The translations under genes were made by a program, and so were the position numbers. This document shows, piece by piece, positions 524-40,456 of a stretch of DNA of 41,961 nucleotides (its first letter is position 1; each line of letters begins with the position of its first letter). The stretch lies in the IMG/VR virus record IMGVR_UViG_2695420685_000011; one strand, written 5' to 3'. The notes under the pieces are model-generated. The model had not been told where the DNA came from. It saw nothing but the letters and a program-made list of their open reading frames with translations, and did not search any database. The stretch is from a virus (Duplodnaviria > Heunggongvirae > Uroviricota > Caudoviricetes).

Positions 524-578
524 TCATCCTGACGCCGATAAGATACATGATTTAAAATGATAGGTAAACACTTACTTA

Positions 579-1169
579 CTATTTGTTATAAACAAAACCA
601 ATATCTTTCTTGTGAGGCATATCTGCTGCTGAAAAAGCTGCGATCTTCGCGAGTCGATCACATATTTCATTTTCACGATGCCCGGCGTGACCTTTAACCC
701 ACTTCCAGCGAACATTATGTCGACTTGCGGCCTCATCCAGACGCTTCCACAGATCAACATTCTTTACCGGTTTTTTGTCAGAAGTCATCCATCCATTGCG
801 TTTCCACCATTTCATCCACTGTGTCATGCCGTTTTTCAGATACTGGCTATCAGAGTGCAAAATAACGTTGCATGGATATTTCAAACGCTCCAGCCCGATA
901 AGTGCCCCCATCATCTCCATGCGGTTATTGGTGGTGCTATGAAAACCATCTGAGAACTCGCGTTCCTCACCACGATACTGGAGAACGATACCGTAACCGC
1001 CCTGGCCACCCGGATTTTTAAGGCAAGAGCCATCACTAAAGATTTTCACGGTTTTAAGCTGGGGATTGAACTCTACGACAGGCGTTGTGGGATTGGTGCG
1101 GGGAGAATTTTTGTTTTTGTCTTTTTTGCGAGTTTTTGCTTGCGATCGGGCTGGTGTCTTCGTCGTCAT
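579..1169 (-). CDS. rnhA: ribonuclease H (RNase HI family)
   Basis: Translation has [26 protein letters not shown] and [10 protein letters not shown] motifs typical of RNase HI. Start moved to the ATG at 1169 (MTTKTP...), which has an AGGAG SD; the track ORF starts at 1253. Confidence 0.9.
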
Positions 1170-1750
1170 ATAAACTCCTGAATCAAGCGCCGCGCCGATT
1201 TTTCCTCGCGCGTGCGCACACGCGTGCGTGTTAATAATTATTAAAATAAACAAATTACTTCCCAGAACAGGTTTTTATAAACCTGAACTGAACGAACGAA
1301 GTGAGTGAAGTTCACCTCGAACGAAGTGAGAGGTTGTCTTTTCAGGTAATACTCTCCCAGGGAGGTGAGTATAAAATTCCTCACCAACCTGGTCGTTTCA
1401 TAACCTGAAAAGCTATGGTCTAAGTCTACTGCCAGCTTAGACTTGGGAAGTTATGGATGACAGCACCCCAGAACCGAGATCTTCCCACACTTTATGAAGG
1501 GGAGTACTGGATTCAACCTCTCGAAACACCCCAGACTCGACAATCATAAAGTGACCCTTGTCTCTGCTCACTTTGGTTCCCCCTTCCCCGACACCTATAC
1601 GGCACCGGTTCTACGCTGGTAGTGAGCTTTTTTAAACCTGACGCCAGTGACGCTTACCCCCACCCATCAGGTCGAGCCTCCAGTCTACGACTGGAAACTA
1701 TCAGATCTTAGCACTTACAATTCACTTTATGAACAGTTTGTACTTATCTA

Positions 1751-1981
1751 TCATTGTGATTGATTATTTTCTCGACCATGTAGTTGAACATTCAAGGCAA
1801 ACACCTCATTGATCAACTCACCTAAAAGCTGTTCAACAAGTTCGCGATGCTCGCCAAGATGCAAGCTCTTAATTGCCCACTCGTACAAGTTGAAAGCCTG
1901 CTCACGATCTTTCATCATTTCACGAGCCTGGGCCAGAAAATCGCTCTCTACGAGCGCAACGACATTAGTCGGGTATGACAT
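1751..1981 (-). CDS. hypothetical small protein
   Basis: ORF from track; internal ATG at 1981 (MSYPTN...) preceded by AAGGAAA; no motifs. Confidence 0.4.
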   Translation of the reverse strand: MSYPTNVVALVESDFLAQAREMMKDREQAFNLYEWAIKSLHLGEHRELVEQLLGELINEVFALNVQLHGRENNQSQ

Positions 1982-2167
1982 GTTGGTTTCCTTAAAGTGG
2001 TTCATAAAATCGATTTTAAAGCGTCTGGGAAGGGGGTCTAGTGGATTCTGTAGTGATGTTCAGGTCTGGGAGTCTCTGATACAAAACAGCCTGCTTCCGT
2101 ATATTAATAATTAATATGTAGTTATTTATATATACAGAAGCAGGCTAATTACAGACGCCAGAGCAAA

Positions 2168-2761
2168 CTAAGCAGCCTTCTTTGATGGTCTTTTTTTCCT
2201 GATCACATTCGCAGGATCATACCCTCCCAGACTTTTCATGACGTCCAAAGGGATCTTGCTTATAGAGTGCCCAGCGTCCTGACAAAACCCTCGAAAAACA
2301 ACGAGCATACTGCCACCGGGGTTGATGTTTACTTCTACCTGACCCAAATTGACGTCAGGCTCGACAAACGCAACGCGGCCACCAGACAGAATAATCGTCT
2401 CATTCGCATACTCTGTTGCACGCTCATACCACTTTGTATCGAGGGATTGAGGAATTAGCATCACTGTTGTAACTCCGCGAGCCTGCTCACGTATAGCCGC
2501 ATCAATCCAGGGGGAGATTTTGGAGTAGGGTGGATTGAGGAAGGCAATTGTACCTGGCTGCCCCCATTCAGATTTCAAAGCATCGCGCTCAACGCCTATG
2601 AAAATAGGCAGCTTTGCATTGTCCTTGTTGCAGGCAACGTCAACATCAAATGTCACTCCAAGATAACGTTGAATGGCAGAAAACAGCCAATCAGGTGTTC
2701 TCCAGAGGTCACGAAGAGAGTTGTCGCGCTTTCGCTGTTTGATTTTTTCGGCTGCAATCAT
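2168..2761 (-). CDS. dam: phage-type DNA N6-adenine methyltransferase (Dam-like)
   Basis: WRTP..LF, FDVDVA and NPPYS motifs characteristic of phage N6-adenine methyltransferases. Confidence 0.85.
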   Translation of the reverse strand: MIAAEKIKQRKRDNSLRDLWRTPDWLFSAIQRYLGVTFDVDVACNKDNAKLPIFIGVERDALKSEWGQPGTIAFLNPPYSKISPWIDAAIREQARGVTTVMLIPQSLDTKWYERATEYANETIILSGGRVAFVEPDVNLGQVEVNINPGGSMLVVFRGFCQDAGHSISKIPLDVMKSLGGYDPANVIRKKRPSKKAA

Positions 2762-2825
2762 CTTCTTTCTCGATAGGTAAGTGATTACCTATTTTTGCAT
2801 TTGATTTTATGTATGGCAATCAAAT

Positions 2826-2870
2826 AAAACGCGCCAGAAATGCGAACAAGAAGCTCTCTGGCGCGTTTTT
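2826..2870. terminator. bidirectional rho-independent terminator-like hairpin
   Basis: Stem CGCGCCAGA/TCTGGCGCG flanked by an A-tract and a T-tract. Confidence 0.6.
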
Positions 2871-2943
2871 GTGGTGCTGGGTATGGGTTAGCTTACCCAG
2901 CACTATAAAGCTCTCTATGGGCTTTATTTTCAGTAGGGGAACG

Positions 2944-4471: not shown

Positions 4472-4480
4472 CAGAACTCC

Positions 4481-4961: not shown

Positions 4962-5606
4962 CTAATGAACGGTCACTCGGCCACAGAACCGGTTTTCTAT
5001 CTTTTCTACAGCGTTATCTAGCATTCTCATCACTGATCTGGCTCTTGCTTCAACCGTGCGATATCGGTTGGAAACGACGAAGGTTTGCAGATCCCCCCTT
5101 TGCGGATGCAGGTGAATTTTTGTCAGTTCCCCGCACATCAACGCATCAATACGAGCGACATACAGACGGTCTAATGATGCTCGTTGTGACCGCAAGTAAT
5201 CTCGCTCTGAGAGAGCGACCCCCGGGCGTAGGCCAGCAATGGCGTTAAAGTTTGAAATAGCAGTTTTGTGGCAAAACTTTTCGATATCGAGGGCTAACTC
5301 AATACATCGATCTTCATTGGTATGGCCGACCAAATCCAACGTGTAGGCCATAACATCAGCAGGTGTGCGATCGATAACAAAGCCTTCAACACCACGCGTA
5401 AGTAGCTCTATATGCTTTGCTATTTCCATTTGAATCTGAAGCCGCTCATATAGAGGCATAGACTCACCTACTCGAACACCGAGTCGGCTCATCAAACTTC
5501 CGACACCAGCATCCACGTAAGGGATTCCGTAATGTTTGTCGATATATTTTGCCAGGGTTGTTTTCCCACTGCCCTGAGCACCAGTGATCCCAATCCGGTA
5601 ATCCAT
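4962..5606 (-). CDS. P-loop nucleoside/nucleotide kinase (possible dNMP kinase)
   Basis: N-terminal Walker A IGITGAQGSGKTT; start overlaps the DHFR stop (TAATG); sits in the nucleotide-metabolism operon. Confidence 0.6.
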   Translation of the reverse strand: MDYRIGITGAQGSGKTTLAKYIDKHYGIPYVDAGVGSLMSRLGVRVGESMPLYERLQIQMEIAKHIELLTRGVEGFVIDRTPADVMAYTLDLVGHTNEDRCIELALDIEKFCHKTAISNFNAIAGLRPGVALSERDYLRSQRASLDRLYVARIDALMCGELTKIHLHPQRGDLQTFVVSNRYRTVEARARSVMRMLDNAVEKIENRFCGRVTVH

Positions 5607-6492: not shown

Positions 6493-6493
6493 A

Positions 6494-7624
6494 TCACACC
6501 GCCACTGGAACCTTGATCCACGGTAGAGGGTCATAGCCAAGAATCAGAATATCGTCCCATTTGAAATCATCCAGCTCAGACCATTCATGAGGGAAAATAA
6601 CGACCGGATCTGAATGCTCTGGAGCCTGTCGTTTCATTAGCTCACACACACCTTCCATGTGGTTGTTGTACAAATGCACGTCAAAGCCAAAATGTACAAA
6701 TGCACCGGCCATGTGACCCGTAATCTTCGCGAGAAAATGAGTGAGAATGCCATAGCCAGCAATATTGAATGGCATACCAACAAAAGTGTCTACGCTACGC
6801 TGTACGAGGCAGGAGTTGAGGATGCGTTTGGGGATTCCAAGTTCATCCAGTTCAGTTTCAGTAACACTGCCGTCCATCTCCAGATCGTATAGCATCTTGG
6901 TGTAGATAGACTCATAACCGAGGCGACTGTGTTGAAGACCAATGTCAGTTGCCATCGTTAAACGGGTTTCAAAATCAAGCTCACGACTCCACAAAGAGAA
7001 GACAAAGTGGCAAGGTGGCAGTTTCATATCCTCAAGCTCGCCTACGTTCCATGCGTTAAGCATGATACGACGATCGGTGGGGTTCGTGCGCAGTGTATCG
7101 ACAATACGCTGTAGCTGATCGATTTCACGGGACAGCACTACGCGATCTTCACTGATACCCAGGTATCCCTCGACTTTGTACCCGCGTTCACGGAAAGTAT
7201 CGATCTTGCTCAGATATTCACTATGGCTCACGATGCGGGTATCTTCCCATCGACGCCACTGCTTACCGTAAACCGGCCCCAAATCGCCATTCTCATCGGC
7301 CCATGCATCCCAAATCTTAACGCCGTTATCCTTGAGAAATTGGATGTTGCCCGTGCCTTTCAGATACCACTCAAGTTCGACAAGCAGTGGCTTAAGATTT
7401 ACCGCCTTTCCAGAAATAAGCGGCACAGTCCCACCAGTAAGCATGTAGTAAGAGGGAACGTAGCAGGTGCTTAAAGTACCAGTGCCTGTGCGATCATCAG
7501 CCTGCACGCCGCTTTTAAGCACCGTCTCAATAACTTTTGCATACGATGCGTTTGTTACCTGACCGTTCGTATGCTCACGATTCAAAAGGAGTGACACAAA
7601 AACCTCACAAAGATAAGTAATCAC
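6494..7624 (-). CDS. thyA: thymidylate synthase (ThyA family, with insertions)
   Basis: DRTGTGT, YGKQWR, LPPCH, QRSVD..PFNIAGY and H.YNNH motifs. Start uncertain: the GTG at 7624 lies inside a palindromic motif and an alternative GTG lies near 7597. Confidence 0.9.
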   Translation of the reverse strand: MITYLCEVFVSLLLNREHTNGQVTNASYAKVIETVLKSGVQADDRTGTGTLSTCYVPSYYMLTGGTVPLISGKAVNLKPLLVELEWYLKGTGNIQFLKDNGVKIWDAWADENGDLGPVYGKQWRRWEDTRIVSHSEYLSKIDTFRERGYKVEGYLGISEDRVVLSREIDQLQRIVDTLRTNPTDRRIMLNAWNVGELEDMKLPPCHFVFSLWSRELDFETRLTMATDIGLQHSRLGYESIYTKMLYDLEMDGSVTETELDELGIPKRILNSCLVQRSVDTFVGMPFNIAGYGILTHFLAKITGHMAGAFVHFGFDVHLYNNHMEGVCELMKRQAPEHSDPVVIFPHEWSELDDFKWDDILILGYDPLPWIKVPVAV

Positions 7625-7673
7625 TTATTCATTAAGTGAGTTTACATTTATTGAGGGAACAAGGCCAGATAGA

Positions 7674-12318: not shown

Positions 12319-12352
12319 ATGTTAATAGATAAGCACTTACCTATCAATGAAA

Positions 12353-13675: not shown

Positions 13676-15581
13676 AGCTGCGCCCCTCTTTAACTTCCAG
13701 AGTAATAGTTTCGCGGAACCATGACTTCATCTCTTTATGGGAGATAATCAGCACAGTGCCCCGTTCGCGAGCTTTGGACTCCAGAATACCCATGAGGCGT
13801 TCAAGACCGGCTGTATCGAGTGCATCGTCAATTTCGTCGCCGATAAACAAATCGATGTTTTTACTCGCCCGGTTACTGACCAGATCTTGCAATGCCAAAG
13901 AACACGCAATGCGAACCTTCCGCTTCTCACCACCAGAGAGGGTCTGGAACGACTTACTTGAACCTTTCTTCTGCACACTAATGTTGAATTTGTCGCGATA
14001 CTCACCTTTTTTAGTGACATCCATCGTCGACCACTCAGCAGTAATATTCCCGTCAGACAACGTATTGAGATACTCGGCTGTGCGTGTATTCAGGAAAGGC
14101 GTAACAGAGGTCAAAATATGAGAACGCACCCCGGCAGGAGAGTAGACCTGACGAGCTTTTTCCAATAGCAACGTTTGTTCCTGAATAGCCTTCAACTCAT
14201 CTTTTAAGGACTTGAAGGTAGACTTACTGGATACCAGGTTATCTTCGTGTCTGGCGATAAGAGCAATAAACGGATTAATCTCTTTTGATATACGATCGAC
14301 CTCAGTACGAGCACGAGTAACAAGAGACTCAATAGCAACAACCTCCTTCTCACGATGACGCAAAGATGAGAGTTGTTTAGTAAGTTCTTCAATCCGGGCA
14401 ATGATAGCCGTTACATCAGGTGTCGTTTTAACAAGGGCAGACTCAATGCTTAACGCCTTCTCAAGATTCGTTTTGTGTTTAGCCATTGCCTCTGCAAGTG
14501 TCTTCGCCTGACCAATTTCCTGACGTGCTTGTTCAATGAAATTCTCCTTCACCGTTGATAGATCTTCTTCGCAGTAGGCTTTGCCACAAGTAGGGCATGG
14601 TGATCCTACTTTAGTACCAACCTCTTCTGCTTTGGTCTTAAAATTGCGCGCGCGGCTCATTGCATCAGCCTGACTATTTTCTGTAGCTTTGATGCTTGCC
14701 CGAATATCAGTTATCGCACCACGCACTTTGAGCAACTTGGCGTCATGTTCTTCTTTTGAGGCTAACTTTTTGCGCTCACTTTCGATTGCCTTCTCGGTAT
14801 CACGGATCTGTTCGGGAAGAGTGCGGATCTCAAGTTCAACTTCCGTTAACTCAACTTCGGCACTTGCCAGCCCGGCCAGGGCATCGTCATAACGTTTAGA
14901 ACGCTCTTGTTCCCATGATTCAGAGGAGGCTTTCGCGGACTCAATTTCTGACTGTGTTGCCTCAATGGTCGAGATTGTCGACTCCAATTTGGTTTTAACC
15001 ACGTCCATACGTGCGGCAGCTGCGTTAGCTCGTTCACGAGCAATAGCGTAGGCGCGTGTCAGTCTGTCAACGCCAGCGGCTTCTTCTACGATGGTTTTGA
15101 GGTTTTTGTCGGACATTCCAGGTAGATCTGGCATAGCTTCTTGGCTTGCATAGATGGAAGCCATGAAAACCTCTTTAGATGCACCGATCAGACGTTCGAC
15201 GAACTCTTGCGTCAGCGCATCTTTGCCTTTCGTCATATCGCCGTCTTCACCACGAACGATAAGCCGATTTTTGAACTCTTTGTGTTTACGGTGACGAATG
15301 ATCGCATATCTCTTGCCTTCATCCTCGATGGTTACTGCAACACGACAGTTCTTTTCATGGTCGGTAGACAACACATCGTCACCATTCACACCATGAGCTG
15401 TTTCGCCATAAAGACACCACATCAGGCTATTCATTAGCGTTGACTTTCCAGAGCCATTACTTGATGCGGAGCTATCATCACTATTAACACCCTGAATGAG
15501 CACTAAACCACGCTGCTCTAACTCGACCTCCGCGCTGGCGATAGCCATAAAATTCTCAACCTGGAGCTTTAAAAACTTCAT
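13665..15581 (-). CDS. sbcC: SbcC/Rad50-like recombination ATPase
   Basis: Walker A NGSGKST, central coiled coil with CPTCGK zinc hook, signature LSGGEKR and Walker B DEIDD. Confidence 0.9.
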   Translation of the reverse strand: MKFLKLQVENFMAIASAEVELEQRGLVLIQGVNSDDSSASSNGSGKSTLMNSLMWCLYGETAHGVNGDDVLSTDHEKNCRVAVTIEDEGKRYAIIRHRKHKEFKNRLIVRGEDGDMTKGKDALTQEFVERLIGASKEVFMASIYASQEAMPDLPGMSDKNLKTIVEEAAGVDRLTRAYAIARERANAAAARMDVVKTKLESTISTIEATQSEIESAKASSESWEQERSKRYDDALAGLASAEVELTEVELEIRTLPEQIRDTEKAIESERKKLASKEEHDAKLLKVRGAITDIRASIKATENSQADAMSRARNFKTKAEEVGTKVGSPCPTCGKAYCEEDLSTVKENFIEQARQEIGQAKTLAEAMAKHKTNLEKALSIESALVKTTPDVTAIIARIEELTKQLSSLRHREKEVVAIESLVTRARTEVDRISKEINPFIALIARHEDNLVSSKSTFKSLKDELKAIQEQTLLLEKARQVYSPAGVRSHILTSVTPFLNTRTAEYLNTLSDGNITAEWSTMDVTKKGEYRDKFNISVQKKGSSKSFQTLSGGEKRKVRIACSLALQDLVSNRASKNIDLFIGDEIDDALDTAGLERLMGILESKARERGTVLIISHKEMKSWFRETITLEVKEGRSYVV

Positions 15582-16896: not shown

Positions 16897-17150
16897 GTGT
16901 TTTTCCTTTGTGGTTATTTTGATACAAATTTTAAGAGCAATGAGAAGGTAAACAACTATGCATAACGGTATGTTAGGAATGAAACGAGCGACTTAATATA
17001 CAAAATTTATAAGTAAGTATATACCTATTTATTGTGACGCAACTTTGCTTGTCTGTATGACTAAAAATAAGACAGGATCACTGTAGAACGCTATGAGAGC
17101 TATTTTGAGGAGGCGTAGATTCTATCTACGCCAATATGCGATCTGGAGGG

Positions 17151-17994: not shown

Positions 17995-18096
17995 GTATGC
18001 TGCCAGCGGTAATTGATAGTCTGTCAACGGTTCGCCGTATGCTGCCAACTGTTTTTGGTATGCTGCCAGCGGCAAATCAAGTATGCTGTCAGCGGT
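17995..18096 (+). repeat. iteron array upstream of rep (4 copies)
   Basis: 16-bp direct repeats at 17995, 18037 (degenerate), 18058 and 18081; consensus RTATGCTRYSAGCGGT. Confidence 0.8.
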
Positions 18097-18116
18097 TGAA
18101 TGACAAAGGTGTCCAC

Positions 18117-20514: not shown

Positions 20515-20553
20515 GATAGGTAGATACTAACTTATATAAATTTTACTGTAAAC

Positions 20554-22465: not shown

Positions 22466-22494
22466 ATAATAAGTAAGTACTTATATATTTTCAA
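22466..22494 (-). promoter_or_regulatory. sigma70-like promoter (TTGAAA-N17-TATTAT on minus strand)
   Basis: -35 at 22489-22494 and -10 at 22466-22471 read on the minus strand, about 30 nt upstream of the 22436 start; palindromic motif lies in the spacer. Confidence 0.45.
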
Positions 22495-25904: not shown

Positions 25905-26021
25905 GTGTTTCTCCTTGTTGTGATTTGGCCGATGGCGCTATGCGCGTTGGGCTTTCGTTCATTCGTGGCTCTTTCGAGCTGTTAAATGATAGATCAGTAC
26001 TTACTTATTATCTATCAAAAA

Positions 26022-26453: not shown

Positions 26454-26596
26454 ATTGATATGCTCAAACTTACTTTCGTGTATCTGATTATATCAAACAA
26501 ATAGAGCTTTACTGTCATGATTGGCGGTAGACAGTATCGGCGCTAAGGTGCAGAATCAGGAGGCACACCGAGCAAAGCAAATTGAGAATAAAACCA

Positions 26597-27580
26597 ATGG
26601 ATAAGGCTAACAAACAAGTCAAAGCAACAAAGTCAGTGCCGACTAAAAAAACAGCCCTCCCCCCAAAAGCTAAGTCTGTAAAGCCAGCGGCAGAAAAGAA
26701 TAAAACTGAAGGTATGACATATCCGAAAACCAGTGCGGATGGACACGCTGGAGAGTACTTGTTTGCCTATTGGATTTCTCGTTATTTCAGATGGCCTTGT
26801 CGATTGCTAGATATTGATATGGGATTGGATGCTCAGGTTGAAATATATGAAAATAATCTTTCGACAGGTTTTTTTATCGGCGTTCAGATAAAAACCACCT
26901 CACGCAAAATGAAGAGAAGGTTAAGCGTACAAATACCTTATAAAAATATAACCTATTGGGGAAGTTGTGATTTTCCTGTGGTAATTGTTTTGATATGCCT
27001 ACACGATGATAATGAATTAGACGAACCTGCTATTTATTGGAAGCATTTAGATAAAAAAACAATTTCTAAAATAAAGGATAAAGCATTAAGAAGTGACTCT
27101 GGATGTGCTCCTGTAACTTTCAATAAGGATGATTATCTGTCTGAATGGGCAGACAAACAAAAGTGGGTCGACATGTGGCTTACAGAAGAAGATAAAGAGA
27201 TAATTGAGCTTGCAAAGCGAGTAAACAAGACGTTGCTAGAGATAGGTGTTCCTCTTGATAAATTCGGAGACGAGTATGACCGCAGCACCTACCTGTGTAG
27301 CCCTGAGCGGGTAGTACCAGACTTGAACTCTATGATGAATGAATATGAAAAAATAAATAACCATATACGTGTAAAGCGTCGATTAGTAGAATTCGATCCT
27401 GTAGTGTCGATTTGTTCACAAAATTATGAAAAGTATCTACCTAAAATCCTTGAATATTTTGAAGATGTGGTCGCACGTAGTGTCGGTTCATACTCGATTG
27501 CAGAACATTTCGAACCATACAGTGATCGTAATCATATTCTGAATCGAATAATTATAGAGAAAGCCCCTAATTCAAGATAG
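26597..27580 (+). CDS. nuclease-fold protein with lysine-rich N-terminal tail (DUF4365-like; unverified)
   Basis: K/P/A-rich tail, then GHAGEYLFAYW..DIDMGLD..VEIY..GVQIKT resembling restriction-endonuclease-like D..E.K signatures; AT-rich; opposite strand to neighbours; terminator downstream. Confidence 0.6.
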   Translation: MDKANKQVKATKSVPTKKTALPPKAKSVKPAAEKNKTEGMTYPKTSADGHAGEYLFAYWISRYFRWPCRLLDIDMGLDAQVEIYENNLSTGFFIGVQIKTTSRKMKRRLSVQIPYKNITYWGSCDFPVVIVLICLHDDNELDEPAIYWKHLDKKTISKIKDKALRSDSGCAPVTFNKDDYLSEWADKQKWVDMWLTEEDKEIIELAKRVNKTLLEIGVPLDKFGDEYDRSTYLCSPERVVPDLNSMMNEYEKINNHIRVKRRLVEFDPVVSICSQNYEKYLPKILEYFEDVVARSVGSYSIAEHFEPYSDRNHILNRIIIEKAPNSR

Positions 27581-32688: not shown

Positions 32689-32783
32689 GCGTTTTTCCTT
32701 TGTTTTCTAATGAGCTTTCAACTTCTTATATAAATATACCATCAAATATCGTAAGTGATTACTTATCATTAAGGCTATTCTAA

Positions 32784-34892
32784 TCACTTCAAAATGATAC
32801 GAGATAGTTCAGTAACTACAGATGAACCAAGACTATCAACGCTCGTTACTAGGGCATGGTTTGCGTAAAATCTCTCCGGTGCGTCAGTCATGATGCCAAT
32901 TGCCATCAAATCAATGTCAGTCTGCGTTTCAATTTGCTTCGCAACCGAACGCAAATGAGCGTCAAAACCTCTCCCAACAGCCCACGGCGCGCCATCGCTT
33001 AGAACAAGCATGATCTTCTTGTCCTCCATGCGACCAGAAAATAACGATGCAAGGCTGGCTATGCTTTCACCATCCACGTTATTAAGAAGTGGGAATGTGT
33101 AGCCTACGCACCCCATACGTGAGCGAACTTCGCGAGAATTTGCCTTTTCATTCCAATTTTTGATGATAGGTAGCATTAAAGATTCAAAGCGAGAGAACTC
33201 ATACTTGATTGCCTTAAGCTCTCCTGCTGCCATATGACTACCAAATGTTGTGAAGCCGGTGATAATGTTGGGAACATTTATTCGATCAAGCGCATCGGCG
33301 ATGGTATATGCACTTGCAAGAGCCAGTTTAATCGTTTCGCCGCTCATTGAACCTGATAAATCAATCACTTGTTGAACACAGGCGTTAACGGCCTTAGATT
33401 CTTCTTTTTTACGAAACACGCGATCATCATTCATTGCTAATCTGTAGATACTAGAACCATGAATGCGCCCCCGACGCTGGCCCGGTATAAACTGAACTCT
33501 GTTTCTGCTTGCAATTGCACGCTCCAGGTCTTTTGCCAGCGTCGACGAAACACCTGACGAAAGATGCTTTTCAATATATTTGTCGAAGAGTTGGTTGCCT
33601 TCAGGAACGATGCGATAACGGCTGATTGGATATCCACCTAAATCAATATCGGAGAATGTTTTAATAAGCCGTTTGATATGGGCTTCTGCCTGATCAATCG
33701 AACCGATGAAGTCGTATGAGCGATTGTATGGCCTGTATTCGCTTTTCGAGCTTTCTGTTAACTCGCTTTTAATCGTTTCGGATAGTGCATCTTCTGTCAT
33801 GCCTCCGACTTCATCTTCCATGCTATCAAGCTCCTCTAAAGCCTCTTCCAGACTCATTTTGGACGGAGTGGGAATGTCTGAAGAGCCGTCTTCTGCCGTT
33901 TTTCTTTTTTCGTGATCCGAGGTAGTTGCTTCTGTCGTCGCGCTATTGGAAGTATCAGAATCTAATACCTCTTTATCATTTTTTGTATCATCGAATATTG
34001 TTTCTGATGATTCAGAATTATCTGAATCATCACTATCGTTATCATCATGTATGTACTTACCGTGTGACCCATCATCTATAGATATGTGGTTATCTAGCAT
34101 CTCATGTGTCTTGTGATCTTCATTGTCTTCATTACTTTCTCCAGAGGAATCCGCTTGGTCAGCGTCTGAAGGATCGGGAGTTTTTCCCGGAGCTGACTCC
34201 TTACCTTTGCTTTCACTTTCTGTGTCTTTGAGGATCTTAGCTATGGTCGCAGCCACCTTTAAACAATCCTCGGTGCAAGACATGTTACGCACGGCCACAT
34301 CGATACCATGTTCTTTTAATAATGAAATTGGTTTCTCAATGACAGGCCAGTATTCATCCATGAAATCTACGAACGGTGCTTGGCCATCCCAGGCTCTTAC
34401 AACCGGACAGAGAAAGAAGTTTAGAAAAAGCGCGCGCTGATCTTTGCCACAATAAGTAATAGCCTCTGAAGCCTTTGGTTTAAAGACTTTTTCGATTATC
34501 AGGCGCTGAGTTGCCATCAGATTACGTCTTGTTCCGTTAAAGACCTGCCCCATTTTTCGCTCGATGAACACGTCTTCTAAGGCATTCCATAGTGACCAGG
34601 AAGGGACGTGTCCTTTTTCTCTCATTTTGTTGGACACATGAATATCGGTAAACAAAATGTGAGCAACTTCATGATCTAGAAATCCGCGTACTGCATTCAT
34701 CAATGCCGGTGTTGCGTTATCTGGGATTGATGGGATGTTTACGAGAATTGGCTCTCCATCATCGTTATAGCGTACATAAGCGTCGTCCCCTCGTTCTGCA
34801 ACAGGGATGTTTTTACCTGAAAGGAGAGCGACTACTCGTTTTACACTGTCACGGAAGTCCTGAACCTCTTTGATGGAACGTTTTTTGGACAT
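32784..34892 (-). CDS. cobT: vWA-domain protein, CobT-like, with long acidic linker
   Basis: C-terminal von Willebrand A domain with MIDAS motif DLSGSMSG; central D/E/S-rich low-complexity region. Confidence 0.8.
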   Translation of the reverse strand: MSKKRSIKEVQDFRDSVKRVVALLSGKNIPVAERGDDAYVRYNDDGEPILVNIPSIPDNATPALMNAVRGFLDHEVAHILFTDIHVSNKMREKGHVPSWSLWNALEDVFIERKMGQVFNGTRRNLMATQRLIIEKVFKPKASEAITYCGKDQRALFLNFFLCPVVRAWDGQAPFVDFMDEYWPVIEKPISLLKEHGIDVAVRNMSCTEDCLKVAATIAKILKDTESESKGKESAPGKTPDPSDADQADSSGESNEDNEDHKTHEMLDNHISIDDGSHGKYIHDDNDSDDSDNSESSETIFDDTKNDKEVLDSDTSNSATTEATTSDHEKRKTAEDGSSDIPTPSKMSLEEALEELDSMEDEVGGMTEDALSETIKSELTESSKSEYRPYNRSYDFIGSIDQAEAHIKRLIKTFSDIDLGGYPISRYRIVPEGNQLFDKYIEKHLSSGVSSTLAKDLERAIASRNRVQFIPGQRRGRIHGSSIYRLAMNDDRVFRKKEESKAVNACVQQVIDLSGSMSGETIKLALASAYTIADALDRINVPNIITGFTTFGSHMAAGELKAIKYEFSRFESLMLPIIKNWNEKANSREVRSRMGCVGYTFPLLNNVDGESIASLASLFSGRMEDKKIMLVLSDGAPWAVGRGFDAHLRSVAKQIETQTDIDLMAIGIMTDAPERFYANHALVTSVDSLGSSVVTELSRIILK

Positions 34893-35203: not shown

Positions 35204-35454
35204 TCAATCAATCCATTCTTACTTATACTATTGTAAGGAATACTACTAAAATTTATATCAATACTGAATACATCCATATTAGATGCAAGTTAATTTTCTT
35301 ACCTATTTGGGGCTAGTTTTTCACCATGCATTGGTCTTCGTCCGGTCTTTAAAGTGCCTGCCGAAAAAAATGATAATAGCTTTACAACCCTAACCTTTGA
35401 TGTAATATCGGTAAGCACTTACCAGAGAGAATTGAACGCGCAAAGGTTGTAACA

Positions 35455-35841
35455 ATGTCTGACAACAAGATTGAATTTATAGAAAGTCGCTACGCTGCTT
35501 TTATCGCAGGGTTGATTGAATCCTCACCTATGAGCCAGGCCCAGATAGCCAAAACAATTGGGTATAAAAACGCCAACAACCTTTCTTTAATTAAAAGCGG
35601 CAAAATTCCTTTGCCTATCGATAAGGTTCGTCCGCTGGCGCTGGCACTGGGTATTGAGCCAAGTCGTCTTATGATGATGGTGCTGGAAGAACGCCAACCC
35701 GAACTCGCAGCATTTTTATTCAAAGAAGGCACTGCTCCTCTTAACGAGGACGAAAAACAGGTTCTTGCTGCATATAACGAGCGATTCGGTAAAGAGAAAG
35801 GCGCATCACAAAAGGTTGTTGAGGCCATAAAGTCTCTATGA
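35455..35841 (+). CDS. XRE-family helix-turn-helix DNA-binding protein
   Basis: HTH SQAQIAKTIGYKNANNLSLIKSGK; AAAGG SD; 3' end overlaps the convergent recombinase gene. Confidence 0.7.
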   Translation: MSDNKIEFIESRYAAFIAGLIESSPMSQAQIAKTIGYKNANNLSLIKSGKIPLPIDKVRPLALALGIEPSRLMMMVLEERQPELAAFLFKEGTAPLNEDEKQVLAAYNERFGKEKGASQKVVEAIKSL

Positions 35842-36939
35842 AAAATTTACACGAATAAGCTCTGTCGATAGACGATCTCCCTTGAATTTGTGGTCAATTT
35901 CGTCTAAATCCGGTTGCTCTACGATTGATGCGATGTACGTCGAGAAACTTTCTAAGGCGTCTCGCATCTCGTCCATATAATCGTGCCGGTCGTAGACCCG
36001 ATCTATCCCCTCAAGACTGTGGTTCATGATTTTACGTGATACCTCCTGGCTTATGCCTAATGCTGGGAAGTAACTACGCGCAGTACGACGCAAATCTCGT
36101 GGTGTAAATGGCTCAAGCTCCATCAGTTCTGGTCGTTCCAGGATACGGCGTAATGCCTGGGCTATTGCCACTTTAGACATCGGAAGATCTTTCCCGATTT
36201 TTTTATTCGAAGGCACAAGCCACTGGCTGCCTTTACCATATTCGAATAACTCTTCAATGCATGTGCGCATTAATGTGCTTAAAGGCAGAGAATGCTCACG
36301 GGCTGATTTGTTTCTCTTGCCTTGATTCCAAACCCCACGCTGGAGGTTGAACTCACTTTTTTTAGCCCGCAGTACTTCGTCAGGTCGTCTTGCGGATACA
36401 AGACATAGCCTGGCCGCCCATTTTGTACCAGCACACACATTGAAGTAGTCCCATATATTCCAGAACACCCATACCTCTGCGTCGGTTAGCTTCCGCTCGC
36501 GAGGTGTGGGCTTTGCGCCACCGGCAACTTTGTTAAGTGACATATCGTTTAACGGTGACACGTCGATCATCCCCTGGAAGGCGCACCAGCTGAGGAACTG
36601 CTTCATCAGAGAGAAAACGCGGCGACCCATAACAATTTTGCCATCCAGTATTAGTGGGTTGACCAGTTGGTTCACCATGAACCTATTAATATCACTTACT
36701 TTTACATCGGCAATGTGCGGCAAAACATGTATCAAAATACAATGAACAGCGATCTCTGGCCGACGTCTTGTTATCAGCAGAGATAAGCGAGTGAATAACA
36801 TGAATGCGTCCGAGAATCTCATGTCATTGCTGACCTGGGAGATCATAACGGCCTGCATTTGAGATGCTCTTTCGAGATACTCAATCGCCTCTTTTGAGGT
36901 GTTCTCCGCAGCGCGTGCTCTGTCAAAGCTATTTTTCAT
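35836..36939 (-). CDS. int: tyrosine-type site-specific recombinase (phage integrase family)
   Basis: C-terminal catalytic region DLRRTARS..NHSLEGIDRVYDRHDY (R...H..R...H...Y pattern). Confidence 0.85.
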   Translation of the reverse strand: MKNSFDRARAAENTSKEAIEYLERASQMQAVMISQVSNDMRFSDAFMLFTRLSLLITRRRPEIAVHCILIHVLPHIADVKVSDINRFMVNQLVNPLILDGKIVMGRRVFSLMKQFLSWCAFQGMIDVSPLNDMSLNKVAGGAKPTPRERKLTDAEVWVFWNIWDYFNVCAGTKWAARLCLVSARRPDEVLRAKKSEFNLQRGVWNQGKRNKSAREHSLPLSTLMRTCIEELFEYGKGSQWLVPSNKKIGKDLPMSKVAIAQALRRILERPELMELEPFTPRDLRRTARSYFPALGISQEVSRKIMNHSLEGIDRVYDRHDYMDEMRDALESFSTYIASIVEQPDLDEIDHKFKGDRLSTELIRVNFS

Positions 36940-37149: not shown

Positions 37150-37395
37150 TCAGAGGGTGCTGACGTATGCAGCCAGTTCTGTGTATCCGCCAATCGGTTG
37201 GCCATCGATCAGTACCTGGGGGATAGTCTCTACCGGTTTACCAACAATTTCACTAAGTTTTTCCTTGTCGATACCGGCAGTGGTGATGTCGATGTACTCA
37301 TAATCACCGTAGCCATGTCCCTTTAGTTGCTTCGCCAGCTCGACCGCACGTTTGCAGTATGAGCAGTTATCTCGTCCGTAGATAGTGATCGTCAT
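37150..37395 (-). CDS. glutaredoxin (NrdC/NrdH-like redoxin)
   Basis: MTITIYGRDNCSYCK active-site CxxC and glutaredoxin-like C-terminus; start set to the ATG at 37395 with GAGGT SD. Confidence 0.8.
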   Translation of the reverse strand: MTITIYGRDNCSYCKRAVELAKQLKGHGYGDYEYIDITTAGIDKEKLSEIVGKPVETIPQVLIDGQPIGGYTELAAYVSTL

Positions 37396-37569
37396 TGTTA
37401 CCTCATAGAATTGATATGCAACTTTACTTACAAAGAAGATAGGTATGTGCATACTTATCATTGCAGTCTGCATTATAAAGCTATTAAAGCCTCGATCAAT
37501 CTATTAATTAAGGCATTGTTTGGTTAACATTACCCTAATATTTTATAGTTAGTAGAGTGAAATACATAC

Positions 37570-38832
37570 ATGCCTTTTTTAATTTTCATTATTATACTAC
37601 TGCTCACCGTGATTTTTTGGGATTGGGTTGTTTTAAATGGTCAAATTGTTGGAACATTGGCTACAGCATTTGCTTTTATAGCAACAGCATGGAATGCCTA
37701 CGAAGCGAGAAAAAGTGCAAAAGCAGCTTTTTCAGCCCTTCAATTAACAACAGAATCATTGTTCGAAATGCGAAAGAGTGCATTTAAACAATGGTTTGAT
37801 TCCTTATTAAATCAACATGATGAGCTATGTCTTCTTGCAAAACAAATTATCGATAAACGCAAAGTTAATTTAAACAGCGATGAGTTACATAGACTATATT
37901 ACCCATTGGTAAAACAGCATGAGGTAATACAGTATGTGAAGCATATTATTAATATTTTTGAGTATGTGGATAGTTCATTTTATATTGATGGGGAATGTCT
38001 AAAGGAAAAAAGAGCGTATGTGTCACAATTAATTTTCAAAATCCCACCTCAGATGAAGTTGATCATTGCTATCTTTGGATTAAAAATCGATTATTGTGAA
38101 CATATTAATTCGGGAAAACTGTGTTGTTTATTGAATAAATATGATTTTTTCAATGATGAAATATTTTTTGATGATGCTTATTCAGATATGCCTTATCTGG
38201 ATGCATTCATAAACCTTAGATTCAACAAAATATTCAAATCTCGAATGATAAATTATTTTGATAATATCATTAAAAGTTATTATGTTCCATCGGACGTTAA
38301 AAGGGACTGGATGTTTCGAAACCCAAAGCTCGTGCCGTCGGTTCTTATGAATTATAAAACTCCTTGTTCTCCTATAATTAATGATTACTTTGAGAAGTTG
38401 CCTTTACATGTAAGAAACTACTTTGAGGAACTACTTAAAACCGCGAATGATAGAGTTACTCATTTTGACGTTTACATCCCACGCCTTATTGGTTGTTCAA
38501 TCGTGCAACATTACGAAGATGTGCCTTCCGAAAAAAACAGGTTAAATGACAGGAATGATGTAATAGCTATGGCTGAAGATTACATCGAGAAAAGAAAATA
38601 TAATCAACTGGATTACATACTTGAAGATATATACTTCAAGAGTGACGAAGATATAATCCCTGGCCACCATTTGATTGTGGCATTTGATGACTATGAATTT
38701 AAATTATCACTCATTAAGATAAATGAGAATAAAGATAGCGATAATCTTTTAAATCGAATTTATACTGAATCCAGTAGCATGGTTAAAGAATATAAGCGCG
38801 AAATATTAAAACTGGGCGACTATGTAAAGTAA
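37570..38832 (+). CDS. membrane-anchored hypothetical protein
   Basis: 420 aa; two N-terminal hydrophobic helices; very AT-rich and N/K/Y/F/I-rich; plus strand; terminator directly downstream. Confidence 0.6.
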   Translation: MPFLIFIIILLLTVIFWDWVVLNGQIVGTLATAFAFIATAWNAYEARKSAKAAFSALQLTTESLFEMRKSAFKQWFDSLLNQHDELCLLAKQIIDKRKVNLNSDELHRLYYPLVKQHEVIQYVKHIINIFEYVDSSFYIDGECLKEKRAYVSQLIFKIPPQMKLIIAIFGLKIDYCEHINSGKLCCLLNKYDFFNDEIFFDDAYSDMPYLDAFINLRFNKIFKSRMINYFDNIIKSYYVPSDVKRDWMFRNPKLVPSVLMNYKTPCSPIINDYFEKLPLHVRNYFEELLKTANDRVTHFDVYIPRLIGCSIVQHYEDVPSEKNRLNDRNDVIAMAEDYIEKRKYNQLDYILEDIYFKSDEDIIPGHHLIVAFDDYEFKLSLIKINENKDSDNLLNRIYTESSSMVKEYKREILKLGDYVK

Positions 38833-38844
38833 ATTGCACTGTTC

Positions 38845-38878
38845 AACAAAAAAGGGGCCGAAGCCCCTTTGAATTTTG
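38845..38878 (+). terminator. rho-independent terminator after the 420-aa gene
   Basis: Stem GGGGCC/GGCCCC region (AAAGGGGCCGAAGCCCCTTT) followed by a T-run. Confidence 0.7.
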
Positions 38879-38944
38879 CGCTGAAAAAAGTGTTGCTAGG
38901 ATGTTAGCAAGCTATGGTTAAGAACGTCTGCCGTAATTATCTAT

Positions 38945-39022
38945 CACAGCGTTGAGCGGTCTGGTTTATGTTAGCGGAGTCTTAATCGAGTTGATTAAAA
39001 GGCCAAACCGCTCAACGCTGTG
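38945..39022 (-). other. long hairpin (16-bp perfect stem) at the 3' end of the tRNA cluster
   Basis: CACAGCGTTGAGCGGT at 38945-38960 pairs with ACCGCTCAACGCTGTG at 39007-39022; possible processing or termination structure. Confidence 0.5.
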
Positions 39023-39024
39023 TC

Positions 39025-39111
39025 TGGCGGAGAGTAATGGAATCGAACCATCATCGTTTGCACAATGGGACGGTTTTCAAGACCGCTTGAGCACCATGCT
39101 CCCTACTCTCC
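39025..39111 (-). tRNA. tRNA-Ser (anticodon UGA), long variable arm
   Basis: Manual fold: acceptor GGAGAGT/ACTCTCC, anticodon loop CTTGAAA, T-loop GGTTCGATTCC, CCA end. Confidence 0.8.
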
Positions 39112-39431
39112 AGCTATTGTGATGGTCGGTGCTGAACTCCGACACAGGGTTGTAGCAAGCCCCGCAAAGCGCGCACTACTGTAGTTGCGGCACATCAGCC
39201 TGTGCATTCATCACAATGGTAAGATCACTACCTTTCGACCAGTCATTGTGCACATGAACGACGATTAACCGTAATGATATTATCGTTGTGTTGTGAAGCC
39301 AGATGCTTATCTTCTGGTTGCTTCAAAGAGCTGCACTTCCTCACAACGGTAAGAGCACTGGTCTGACTCTATCGATTTACGGCCTTGTGGGTCAGTATCG
39401 CCGATTCGCCCAATGCTCTTACCTGTTGTGT

Positions 39432-39507
39432 TGGTGCCGGTTAACGGACTTGAACCGCTGGCCATTCGCTTACAAAACGACTGCTCTACCAACTGAGCTA
39501 AACCGGC
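39432..39507 (-). tRNA. tRNA-Thr (anticodon UGU, tentative)
   Basis: Manual fold: acceptor GCCGGTT/AACCGGC, D-arm GCTCAGTTGGTAGAGC, anticodon loop TTTGTAA, T-loop TTCAAGT, CCA end; one mismatch in the anticodon stem. Confidence 0.65.
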
Positions 39508-39511
39508 AATT

Positions 39512-39598
39512 TGGTGGGGAGTGATGGAGTCGAACCACCCGAGTCGCCATGACAGTAGATTTACAGTCTACACCGCTACCTCTACGGACTAACTCCCC
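39512..39598 (-). tRNA. tRNA-Tyr (anticodon GUA), long variable arm
   Basis: Manual fold: acceptor GGGGAGT/ACTCCCC, anticodon stem-loop GTAGA-CTGTAAA-TCTAC, T-loop GGTTCGACTCC, CCA end. Confidence 0.8.
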
Positions 39599-39603
39599 TA
39601 AAT

Positions 39604-39678
39604 TGGCGATGGTGGGTGGATTCGAACCACCGACCAGTTGGTTAACAGCCAACTGCTCTACCGCTGAGCTACACCATC
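39604..39678 (-). tRNA. tRNA-Asn (anticodon GUU)
   Basis: Manual fold: acceptor GATGGTG/CACCATC, anticodon stem-loop GTTGG-CTGTTAA-CCAAC, T-loop GGTTCGAATCC, CCA end. Confidence 0.85.
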
Positions 39679-40456
39679 AATTCAGCACTGCCAGTATTTA
39701 TTACTCAACAGTGCCAATCGCGACGGTTTAGTTTCTGCCAGGAAACGCACCGCTACTTGCACTTTTCGTTAGTGCCAGACGCTTTCGACTTCGCTCAATA
39801 GTAGAAGGCAAAATCTTTAAGTAGATGATGTTTCTGAGGACAGCACCTACTTTGTAATTTATACAATGTGATGTATGGAATCATTTGTTGTGAAAACAGG
39901 CACCAATGGCAACAGTGGTTAAACCTACACAACAATCCCGTCTTCACAACGTTGAGGCCACTACTCCGATTGAATGTTTGCCCAACATGTTACATATCAA
40001 CGCTCGCCGGTATCTCTGTGAATAGAACCTTAGAATTGATAAAAATGTAATGGCCTCAACGTTGTGTGCTGGCTAACCATACCAGCCGGGCTACGTCGCC
40101 GCTTTTTAACCCAGTATAAACGACATAATTGAACAAAATGACGTAACAGGATGGGCGGTCAGTGGCTAAGAATCCGGGAGTCATATGGAGTTGAAAATAT
40201 ACCAACCGCCCATTCTGTTACTTCATCGGAGGGAACATGAATGTTCCCTCCTGCGTTCTGCAATCACACTCGCTCAGTGTGTCCCATTTCGGTAACGAGG
40301 CTGGAAACTGACCTCGCTGGTGTTTGGCTTATTAGGCTACTGCCAGATAGACTTCTTCGTTTGCACTTGTATTTAAGTTCAAACAGTCGCGTCTCAACGA
40401 AAACAAAGTCATCTTATACACAAAAGATAAGTAAGTAAATACTTATCATTGTATTT

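Follow-up and report, generated by a model that had tools for sequence, protein, structure and literature searches.

A 20-bp palindrome, with the perfectly symmetric consensus ATAGGTAAGT followed by ACTTACCTAT, is present in 12 copies (nine strong, one moderate and two weak) in the window, by which is meant the whole stretch of 41,961 nucleotides that was analysed. The window belongs to an SSU5-group phage-plasmid with 98% identity to the E. coli phage Cyrano, and on balance the palindromes are probably operators for the element's own Cro/CI-type repressor, with the HTH protein encoded at 35455-35841 as the putative binder. That the copies form a dispersed operator set, as the sequence-only reading had proposed, is the interpretation best supported in silico, by half-sites that vary independently, by a stronger constraint on sites than on flanks, and by predicted core promoters that face the genes in variable registers. 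The further suggestion that this XRE-type protein is a candidate binder gains support from its Cro/CI fold, its co-occurrence with the element, a variant copy of the palindrome at its own promoter, and its expression in a lysogen.

Distribution and conservation of the palindrome

All 12 places at which the sequence-only reading had put a palindrome carry the motif, no more than 1-2 nt from where it was first placed, and the neighbouring genes (dam, thymidylate synthase, nrdA, sbcD, the recombinase region, SSB, cobS and glutaredoxin) had been named correctly, all on the minus strand. The copies are given below with scores from a matrix built from phage SSU5 sites only, where the SSU5 sites are about 76% diverged.

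560..579: ATAGGTAAACACTTACTTAC, 25.8 bits; reaches 1 nt into the stop codon of an RNase H-like gene, with the next minus-strand gene (start 430) 129 nt downstream; 18/20 bases the same as SSU5 79904
2773..2792: ATAGGTAAGTGATTACCTAT, 27.2 bits; 11 nt upstream of the ATG of a dam-like methyltransferase gene (2761, minus strand)
7613..7632: ATAAGTAATCACTTATTCAT, 17.7 bits; followed after 15 nt by the thymidylate synthase start (7597, minus strand); its orthologs are SSU5 72511 and Cyrano 72595
12325..12344: ATAGATAAGCACTTACCTAT, 27.8 bits; 8 nt after a RuvC-like stop and 45 nt before the nrdA ATG (12279); 19/20 bases conserved with SSU5
17009..17028: ATAAGTAAGTATATACCTAT, 26.5 bits; 112 nt upstream of an sbcD-like start (16896); 18/20 bases conserved with SSU5 in the site, 34/81 in the flanks
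20516..20535: ATAGGTAGATACTAACTTAT, 21.6 bits; the ATG of a small membrane-protein gene (20514) lies 1 nt downstream; 20/20 bases the same as SSU5 58074
22469..22488: ATAAGTAAGTACTTATATAT, 25.8 bits; downstream of the recombinase gene; 20/20 conserved with SSU5
25989..26008: ATAGATCAGTACTTACTTAT, 25.4 bits; 84 nt upstream of a gp32-like SSB gene (25904); 19/20 conserved with SSU5
32747..32766: degenerate copy, in minus-strand reading ATAAGTAATCACTTACGATA, scoring under 10 bits with the SSU5 matrix; cobS (32688) begins 58 nt downstream; 19/20 bases conserved with the syntenic SSU5 copy 45124
35407..35426, plus strand: variant copy ATCGGTAAGCACTTACCAGA, 12.5-13.6 bits; 48-29 nt before the ATG of the HTH gene, over its predicted promoter start region
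37439..37458: ATAGGTATGTGCATACTTAT, 24.6 bits; 43 nt upstream of a glutaredoxin gene (37395, minus strand)
40427..40446: ATAAGTAAGTAAATACTTAT, 25.5 bits; 10 nt past a gene stop codon, followed by a non-coding stretch and the tRNA cluster; 20/20 bases the same as SSU5 41773

These sites exist, are not random and are confined to non-coding DNA. Non-coding DNA makes up 14.8% of the window and holds 12 of the 12 copies, the single nucleotide of stop codon under copy 560 being the only overlap, while in Cyrano 20 of 21 copies lie within the non-coding 13% of the genome. An abundance no greater than chance is not what was found: exact searches for ATAGGTAAGYRCTTACCTAT with at most three mismatches gave seven matches in the window against 0.00 expected over 100 shuffles, and with the SSU5-only matrix the nine strong copies (560, 2773, 12325, 17009, 20516, 22469, 25989, 37439 and 40427; 21.6-27.8 bits) all exceeded the best of 200 Markov-random windows, which reached 19.5 bits. 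Further degenerate candidates are present at 1732-1751 and 2114-2133 (12-14 bits), the first of which is the counterpart of a 20-bit site in SSU5.

Orthologous copies in the window and SSU5 share 92% identity in the sites and 67% in the flanks, which argues for purifying selection on the sites. Related genomes carry about 20-30 copies each, and clade-specific variants occupy syntenic gaps in Klebsiella (ATAAGTAAGTATTTACTTAT), Aeromonas (ATCAGTAAGTGTTTACTGAT) and Acinetobacter (ATTAGTAAGCGCTTACTAAT, about 31 copies) relatives. In related genomes the motif precedes packaging, head, tail and lysis genes in addition to those for DNA metabolism, and an accessory region at 85-105 kb has no motif sites.

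Half-sites and predicted promoters

Between the half-sites 286 complementary pairs were counted, where independent variation predicts 286.7 (P=0.59); the half-sites thus vary independently, which points to a site read as DNA by a protein rather than as an RNA hairpin. Sigma-70-like promoter cores predicted by computer overlap the sites, the best overlapping score being 8.0 in the gene sense as compared with 6.6 antisense (P=9e-4) and 5.3 with shuffled flanks (P=2e-10). At 2819-2791, a promoter-like TTGCCA-17-AAAAAT with a TG extension ends at the edge of the palindrome at 2773..2792. A TTGATA-17-TAACAT match (12347-12319) spans copy 12325 and is followed by a hairpin with a T-run (12318-12297), and TAGATA-17-TATCAT (26014-25986) likewise spans copy 25989..26008. 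Around 22469..22488 the minus-strand order is recombinase stop, terminator hairpin (22524-22504), TTGAAA, palindrome and gene ATG (22436), with the palindrome forming the spacer of a TTGAAA-17-TATTAT match (10/12) at 22494-22466, while copy 37439 is closely preceded by a TTGATC-16-TATAAT match (10/12) at 37499-37472.

Measured from the palindrome, the position of the best -10 element varies (+18, -3, +21, +25 and +11-13), and operators that overlap core promoters in this way fit better than an activator box of fixed geometry. The -35 element is weak or missing at most sites, where the region is merely A/T-rich, so that many of the predicted promoters look poor for unaided sigma-70 and activation fits as well as repression. 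The predicted promoters are probably real, and binding at them would probably repress.

A role for activation would have a model in P1, where late promoters depend on Lpa and carry a 9-bp inverted repeat near -22, with 11 Lpa-dependent late promoters described (PMC10695390). The P1 late -22 boxes (AAGTGACTT and similar) resemble the core AAGTACTT, and the two systems have in common a short inverted repeat with AAGT/ACTT half-sites, lying shortly upstream of the -10 or over it, without a good -35. The palindrome could accordingly mark a class of -35-less, phage-specific promoters switched on by an Lpa-like activator early in the lytic cycle, which would suit the A/T-rich -35 regions, the -10-like TATCAT built in at positions 18-23, the presence of the motif before genes for the virion, lysis and DNA metabolism alike, and a site-free accessory region that could be the early region. 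On the other side, the repeat is 20 bp here as opposed to 9 bp in P1, its spacing to the -10 is variable, with at least four promoter registers where a polymerase-contacting activator would be expected to need fixed spacing, and the flanks are as symmetric as the core. In addition, the sole protein whose own promoter carries the motif is active in the lysogen at the level of expression, while the site-linked operons that were read are silent there, and the best tblastn match to Lpa (E=0.29) lies in a gene absent from SSU5. An activator box is therefore unlikely, and the phage-specific promoter element of fixed design that had been offered as an alternative is disfavoured by the variable -10 registers. 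Assignment of these sites to the P1-type late promoters themselves is not supported, as an Lpa homolog was not found and the distance from inverted repeat to -10 is not fixed.

The HTH protein and other candidate binders

Features in and around the HTH gene region are as follows.

35381..35408, plus strand: predicted sigma-70 promoter of the HTH gene, TTTACA-16-TAATAT, with hexamers conserved between clades
35455..35841, plus strand: XRE/Cro-CI-type HTH protein of 128 aa, ortholog of CYRAN_45, proposed palindrome-binding repressor
35836..36939, minus strand: tyrosine recombinase/integrase (Pfam Phage_integrase), in convergent orientation to the HTH gene, whose end it overlaps
39678-39025, minus strand: tRNA cluster
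40899-41108: CYRAN_37 ortholog, a small candidate winged-helix-like protein (from reading the sequence)

The HTH protein is, in our assessment, the best candidate binder. It matches phrog_8 (E=1.3e-11) and Pfam HTH_19 (E=7.8e-4, below the family cut-off), and its AlphaFold model, with pLDDT of 87-90 (10-residue block means) over residues 11-80, superposes on C.AhdI, 434 Cro and P22 c2 with an rmsd of 1.5-1.9 A over about 62 residues and a TM score (target) of 0.78-0.81; the model shows a five-helix Cro/CI-type HTH domain. The C-terminal half is helical and an S24 peptidase domain was not found in it, so a route of RecA-mediated self-cleavage is not evident.

Co-occurrence of the HTH gene with the element is about 1:1 over about 1000 plasmids, as seen from counts of plasmids with HTH homologs and with the portal gene in Klebsiella (348/341), Escherichia (230/204), Acinetobacter (154/145), Enterobacter (92/91), Yersinia (63/62) and Salmonella (49/49). 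The Aeromonas homolog matches family members at E=8e-9 to 7e-12. The HTH gene and integrase form a conserved pair, annotated as neighbours in nearly all of the 30 plasmid matches listed. Conservation of the TTTACA-16-TAATAT promoter, with a variant palindrome 46-56 nt ahead of the ATG, extends over 73 viral-contig loci (31 distinct sequences), the same arrangement is found in pKpn, pHCM2 and pFra plasmids, and in Acinetobacter and Aeromonas a motif copy is likewise located upstream of the HTH gene. Of all copies, the one at the HTH gene fits the family matrix least well. In RNA-seq of LF82, a Cyrano lysogen, CYRAN_45 stands at about 96, while the site-linked genes covered by the comparison, CYRAN_5, 47, 48 and 69, stand at about 7-13, i.e. 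background (PMC9928086 S1 table).

In the proposed mechanism, a dimer or higher oligomer of the HTH protein would recognise the 20-bp palindrome, and almost all lytic transcription units would have one such operator on their core promoter. The units gated in this way would comprise nucleotide metabolism, recombination, replication and tRNA genes in the window and, elsewhere in related genomes, packaging, head, tail and lysis genes as well. While the element is maintained as a plasmid (the lysogenic state), the repressor would sit on its sites and block RNA polymerase, and the weaker variant copy over the HTH promoter start, as an autoregulatory operator, would provide negative autoregulation. 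If the repressor were lost or inactivated, all units would be freed together. Against the repressor reading, it may be observed that a single repressor gating early-type and virion genes gives no account of temporal control.

Phage SSU5 is the one relative examined in which the HTH gene and integrase are both missing. It was isolated as a phage, which fits the loss of a lysogeny repressor, and it is used as a lytic biocontrol agent. About 22 intact sites are kept in SSU5 without the HTH gene, which, if this protein is the binder, needs either a recent gene loss or a second function or binder.

Other conserved DNA-binding candidates, which also speak against the repressor reading, are an FljA-family protein, two ParB-like proteins and the small candidate winged-helix-like proteins CYRAN_37 and CYRAN_123, both picked out by reading the sequences. 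SSU5 retains the genes for such candidates together with its sites, and the palindromes might serve the FljA-family CYRAN_114, a KorB-type ParB-like protein, or CYRAN_37 or CYRAN_123. CYRAN_114 matches PF03614 (E=1e-80), occurs in essentially every enterobacterial member and runs in the opposite direction to the lytic genes, but the FljA-like gene was not detected in motif-bearing Acinetobacter and Aeromonas plasmids, a motif copy was not found upstream of it, its product falls to 36% identity in a Klebsiella clade with an unchanged motif, and its expression in the lysogen is near background (18 versus 96 for CYRAN_45). The ParB-like genes adjoin one palindrome copy, and conservation of these genes and of CYRAN_121-123 reaches as far as Aeromonas and Acinetobacter, with a palindrome at the head of that operon. 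Taken together, a binder from among these proteins is improbable, though it would suit SSU5.

Relation to known systems

A host protein was also considered, in that the palindromes could mimic SlmA-binding sequences (SBS) and recruit SlmA, the nucleoid-occlusion protein, for control of cell division or as a host-supplied repressor. The consensus core GTAAGTACTTAC conforms to the SBS rule as published, GTGAGTACTCAC, in which G, T, A and G are required at positions 1, 2, 4 and 5 with a purine at 3 and a pyrimidine at 6 (PMC3020112), and the 20-bp SBS consensus GTAAGTGAGCGCTCACTTAC (PMC4423959) agrees with the motif at 14/20 positions, xTRRGT units in a tandem architecture with a 4-bp offset being common to both. 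An SBS over a promoter represses, and a V. cholerae promoter is SlmA-regulated (PMC5519180). However, tested as the 12-bp core GTRAGY-RCTYAC, the rule holds for only 1 of the 12 window copies and for 1-3 per related genome, and the G preferred at core position 3 of E. coli SBS is found in 0/43 left halves, its mirror C occurring once in the right half. Real SBS score 13.9, 7.3 and -3.1 bits with the motif matrix versus 20-28 for phage sites. Chromosomal SBS of E. coli are mostly intragenic and avoid promoters, as opposed to the palindromes here, which are all intergenic and whose outer bases vary by clade along with a phage protein, and SlmA sites are therefore very unlikely. That the transcribed palindrome works as an RNA hairpin (processing site, terminator, stabiliser or translational operator) is scarcely credible, since, although copies lie between co-directional operon genes, often a few nt past a stop or 1-15 nt before a start codon, and GC-rich hairpins come after several, the stem would comprise just 8-10 AU-rich pairs, no compensatory changes are seen, A-C mismatches are as common as G-U pairs and across clades it is sequence rather than pairing that is conserved, so that the processing hairpin once suggested is rejected.

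Returning to the repressor reading, the resemblance to P1 C1 that had been drawn at the outset stands in functional terms only. In P1, the role of the C1 repressor has been described (PMC10695390) and its dispersed operators are annotated in AF234172; lytic genes of a phage-plasmid are silenced there through many genome-scattered copies of one operator, as is putatively the case here, with copies that overlap promoters of separate units (predicted promoters in the present element) and some located at the gene of the repressor itself (P1 annotation). In P1 the operator has 17 bp and is asymmetric, as opposed to a 20-bp palindrome here, and late-gene control is left to the activator Lpa, whereas in relatives of the present element packaging, head, tail and lysis genes have the site in front of them as well. 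Membership of the C1 family by homology was ruled out, as neither a C1 homolog (tblastn E>=0.66) nor a 17-bp operator of the ATTGCTCTAATAAATTT type (0 matches at <=3 mismatches) was found.

The five-helix HTH fold is shared with Cro/CI (XRE) repressors such as P22 c2 and 434 cI/Cro and with the controller C proteins of R-M systems. A further parallel with the Cro/CI repressors is the predicted use of a palindromic operator, with a copy for autoregulation at the promoter of the repressor gene; the site is two-fold symmetric, its half-sites vary independently, and a copy is found at the HTH gene's own promoter. While classical phages have two or three clustered operators in one switch region, 20-30 single sites are spread here over about 100 kb. 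In this the element would be like the KorA/KorB global regulon of the IncP plasmid RK2, in which a dozen or more palindromic operators spread over the plasmid co-ordinate many operons, although through different proteins (a ParB-family protein and a small HTH protein).

An earlier description of the motif was not found in the literature. If the palindrome is a repressor operator, these sites would provide the first regulatory map for the SSU5-type elements, the largest known group of phage-plasmids.

The palindrome family and the elements that carry it

The 20-bp imperfect palindrome that the sequence-only reading had proposed as a dispersed operator set is real: the motif is present at every coordinate reported in the window, and alignment of the copies (starting at 560, 2773, 7613, 12325, 17009, 20516, 22469, 25989, 32747, 35407, 37439 and 40427) resolves into a perfect 20-bp palindrome, ATAGGTAAGT/ACTTACCTAT. 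Its intergenic location was also borne out, as the non-coding DNA, 14.8% of the window, holds 12 of the 12 copies, and its frequency is well above chance, as seven copies with three or fewer mismatches were found compared with none in 100 shuffles. When the scoring matrix was derived from the copies of Salmonella phage SSU5 alone, to avoid circularity, nine copies scored 21.6-27.8 bits, while the top of 200 random windows reached 19.5. With this matrix, copy 7613 scored 17.7 bits, variant copy 35407 scored 12.5, and copy 32747 scored below 10, yet the latter is identical at 19 of 20 bases to the syntenic SSU5 copy. Two further degenerate candidate copies start at 1732 and 2114.

By megablast, the window belongs to the SSU5 group of phage-plasmids. 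Most of it aligns to Escherichia phage Cyrano (pLF82) at 98% identity; for SSU5 the identity is about 76%. Nearly all of the window genes are encoded on the minus strand and correspond to Cyrano genes 36-83, which include DNA ligase, tRNAs, glutaredoxin, integrase, an HTH protein, cobT/cobS and DNA polymerase III alpha, followed by UvsY, a gp32-like SSB, exonuclease, a RecA-like recombinase, a Rep initiator, SbcCD and RuvC, as well as NrdAB, MazG, thymidylate synthase, DHFR, a dam-like methylase and RNase H. Searched on its own, the portal gene retrieved 966 plasmid records, among them the S. Typhi plasmid pHCM2, Y. pestis pFra/pMT1 and the pKpn plasmids of Klebsiella. Other features of the window are as follows.

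1-121: part of an IS100 (IS21-family) transposase; unrelated phage records also hold IS100 copies that match it at 100% identity; SSU5-type sequence runs from about 122 on
17997-19211 (+): Rep3-type replication initiator, just 49% identical to RepA of Cyrano and SSU5; the 1.8 kb around it does not align, and the replicon appears to have been swapped inside an otherwise 98% identical backbone
22529-23602: RecA-like gene of 357 aa; that of Cyrano (55065-57404, 779 aa) is longer by about 1.26 kb of extra DNA (Cyrano 55256-56520), which is absent from the window gene and looks like an intein or intron-type insertion
26582-27580 (+): DUF4365 protein of 332 aa, in a variable cargo slot between the UvsY and DNA polymerase genes that holds a HicAB toxin-antitoxin pair in Cyrano
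37570-38832 (+): ORF of 420 aa that matches no Pfam family and is missing from Cyrano and SSU5; it diverges from the glutaredoxin gene, and the gap shared by the two holds a palindrome copy
39025-39678 (-): tRNA cluster (Ser-TGA, Thr-TGT, Tyr-GTA, Asn-GTT), annotated in Cyrano as Asn, Thr and Ser only

In complete genomes scored with the same matrix, there are 21 strong copies in Cyrano and 22 in SSU5, some of which stand ahead of the portal, scaffold, capsid-decoration, tail, tail-fibre and holin genes. The Cyrano copies occupy 20 of its approximately 78 intergenic gaps, and 20 of the 21 lie within the 13% of the genome that is non-coding; the accessory region at 85-105 kb has none. Across ten orthologous copies in the window and SSU5, the sites are 92% identical, compared with 67% for the 40-nt flanks. 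Distant relatives, whose portal proteins are 52-72% identical, carry clade-specific versions of the motif in the same syntenic gaps (helicase|ParB, terminase|portal and around the capsid gene), namely ATAAGTAAGTATTTACTTAT in Klebsiella, ATCAGTAAGTGTTTACTGAT in Aeromonas caviae and ATTAGTAAGCGCTTACTAAT in Acinetobacter baumannii, where the whole plasmid has about 31 copies. No paper containing the core sequence, and none describing operators or regulation in the SSU5 group or the lysis-lysogeny control of SSU5-type elements, was found in the literature searched.

A DNA site on predicted promoters

An RNA processing hairpin had been put forward as an alternative role for the palindrome. For a motif that works as an RNA hairpin, a change in either arm should be matched by a compensating change in the opposite one; among 40 distinct copies, complementary pairs numbered 286, compared with 286.7 expected under independent arms (P=0.59), and A-C mismatches between the arms were as common as G-U pairs. 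On this absence of covariation, an RNA hairpin or processing site was rejected, and the conserved half sequences are instead the signature of a symmetric protein that would read double-stranded DNA.

In the sense of the downstream gene, the last three bases of the palindrome and the next three form TATCAT, a good -10 hexamer, while the symmetry of the flanks nearly equals that of the core and the -35 position shows A/T richness only. A single fixed sigma-70 register with the -10 at positions 18-23 was rejected, as its -35 score was no better than that of the mirror orientation. When any register that lets a core promoter overlap the palindrome was allowed, the best sigma-70-like match scored 8.0 in the sense orientation, compared with 6.6 in antisense (P=9e-4) and 5.3 with shuffled flanks (P=2e-10), and the predicted -10 lay mainly at +18, -3, +21 or +25 relative to the palindrome. 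Three of the predicted promoters in the window are as follows.

22494-22466: TTGAAA-17-TATTAT, directly after a terminator, with the palindrome as its spacer
12347-12319: TTGATA-17-TAACAT, ahead of nrdA
Ahead of dam: TTGCCA-17-AAAAAT, ending at the palindrome edge

The palindrome thus appears to sit on predicted core promoters at no single fixed distance. Such variable spacing would be tolerated by an occluding repressor, and would not be expected of an activator that touches the polymerase.

Two further elements were seen beside some of the palindromes. Immediately after several of them stands a GC-rich hairpin with a T-run, at 12318-12297 (-) in the window and, of the same type, at 5466-5492, 15550-15575 and 22470-22490 in Cyrano. 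The overlapping promoter is predicted to start transcription within the 5' arm of the hairpin, so that read-through would terminate and promoter-started transcripts would not. Short conserved TGTAAGAAT or TATAAGAT elements, which look like an extended -10, are found 7-9 nt downstream of some palindromes (Cyrano 34750-34765 and 84640-84655; copies 40427 and 32747 of the window) and are kept in SSU5.

Candidate binders of the palindrome

The best-supported reading of these data is the one first proposed, in which the palindromes would be dispersed operators of a repressor, with the HTH protein as the candidate binder. This 128-aa protein (35455-35841, +) is the ortholog of CYRAN_45 of Cyrano; its Pfam HTH_19 match is sub-threshold, while its match to a PHROG regulator is clear. 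A structure model built on 20 homologs is confident over residues 11-80 and fits C.AhdI, 434 Cro and P22 c2 at 1.5-1.9 A; it shows an HTH domain of the Cro/CI type and a C-terminal half that is helical.

Evidence from distribution is consistent with this role. By tblastn, the HTH gene is present in 995 plasmid records, and its counts by genus follow those of the portal gene (HTH/portal: Klebsiella 348/341, Escherichia 230/204, Acinetobacter 154/145, Enterobacter 92/91, Yersinia 63/62, Salmonella 49/49). Among the matches listed it is almost always annotated beside an integrase, and a homolog is also found in an Aeromonas plasmid. A scan of viral contigs with the protein returned close SSU5-type relatives only and did not widen the family. 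The phage isolate SSU5 has kept the sites and lost the whole HTH-integrase block, which could be held against the HTH protein as binder; given the 995 plasmid records and the Aeromonas homolog, SSU5 is the exception and does not show that this protein could not be the binder.

The HTH gene itself carries a site. Its predicted promoter, TTTACA-16-TAATAT, is directly followed by the variant palindrome ATC(G/A)GTAAG(C/T)ACTTACCAGA, a layout that recurs 46-56 nt ahead of the ATG in 31 distinct sequences from 73 related viral contigs. The same arrangement is seen in pKpn, pHCM2 and pFra, and a motif copy also lies upstream of the HTH homologs of Acinetobacter and Aeromonas. In the pHCM2/pFra clade, a second half-site-like element, ATAGATAAGTCTTTAC, lies 85-66 nt before the HTH ATG and overlaps the -35; it may be a second autoregulatory operator. 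The recognition helix reads N-x-N-x-L-S-L-I-K in enterics, and its S-x-I core, kept in all clades, parallels the invariant AGTAA of the site. In published RNA-seq of the LF82 lysogen, CYRAN_45 was read at about 96 normalised units and was flagged by the authors as a putative master repressor, while the site-linked genes examined stood at about 7-13, for example 7.4 for MCP, 6.7 for cobS and 7.6 for nrdA (PMC9928086). With CYRAN_45 expressed and these site-linked genes silent, the HTH protein, if it is the binder, would be a repressor.

It is very improbable that the palindromes double as mimics of the sites bound by SlmA, the host nucleoid-occlusion protein, even though the consensus core GTAAGTACTTAC satisfies the SlmA rule established by experiment (PMC3020112) and the 20-bp SlmA-binding sequence (SBS) consensus agrees at 14 of 20 positions, with the same overlapping xTRRGT repeat (PMC4423959). 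The 12-mer rule is obeyed by one window copy only, the G preferred at core position 3 of the SBS never occurs at the left-half position (0 of 43 copies), the motif matrix gives real SBS 13.9, 7.3 and -3.1 bits, and chromosomal SBS avoid promoters. Host SlmA was rejected as the reader of the sites, as individual copies and real SBS fail to cross-match. Were the mimicry true, about 20 copies per element, multiplied in lytic replication, could recruit or titrate SlmA, and the state of the element would be coupled to host cell division or SlmA used as a co-repressor.

CYRAN_114 (Cyrano 100780-101301, -) is a full-length FljA-family protein (the family of the repressor of phase-1 flagellin; PF03614, E=1e-80). 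It occurs in all enteric members, being kept in about 835 enterobacterial plasmids of the SSU5 group, and was rejected as it is confined to Enterobacterales, no homolog being detected in Acinetobacter and Aeromonas. It diverges to 36% identity where the motif is unchanged, its own gene is without the motif, and it is near background in the LF82 lysogen. The remaining candidates, conserved everywhere, are the proteins of ParB type and two small ones that may be winged-helix-like, judging by their sequences. A phage sigma factor was dismissed, as one occurs in an Acinetobacter relative (sigma-70-family gene, plasmid CP116441 3078-3743, between a cobS-like ATPase and dnaE) and no homolog in the window, Cyrano or SSU5. 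A late promoter of the type activated by phage P1 Lpa was rejected too: the palindromes resemble the P1 -22 boxes, but no homolog of Lpa was found and the spacing is not fixed.

The likeness to the P1 repressor C1 suggested earlier holds in part. The sites would work like the C1 operator network, but no C1 homolog was found, the candidate repressor here being of the Cro/CI type, and P1 carries no comparable motif. Unlike in P1, the same proposed operator also lies ahead of virion and lysis genes in relatives of the window element.

Implications for SSU5-type elements

SSU5-type elements are the largest phage-plasmid group and are clinically widespread. With a defined operator, a candidate repressor and approximately 20-30 promoters predicted to be under control per genome, their lysis-lysogeny switch would become directly testable. 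The operator set would help to predict which members of the group are inducible, to explain the expression of cargo genes adjoining the sites, and to engineer derepressed or locked variants. Conserved from Enterobacterales to Aeromonas and Acinetobacter, the site and the protein offer a natural series for the study of repressor-operator co-evolution.
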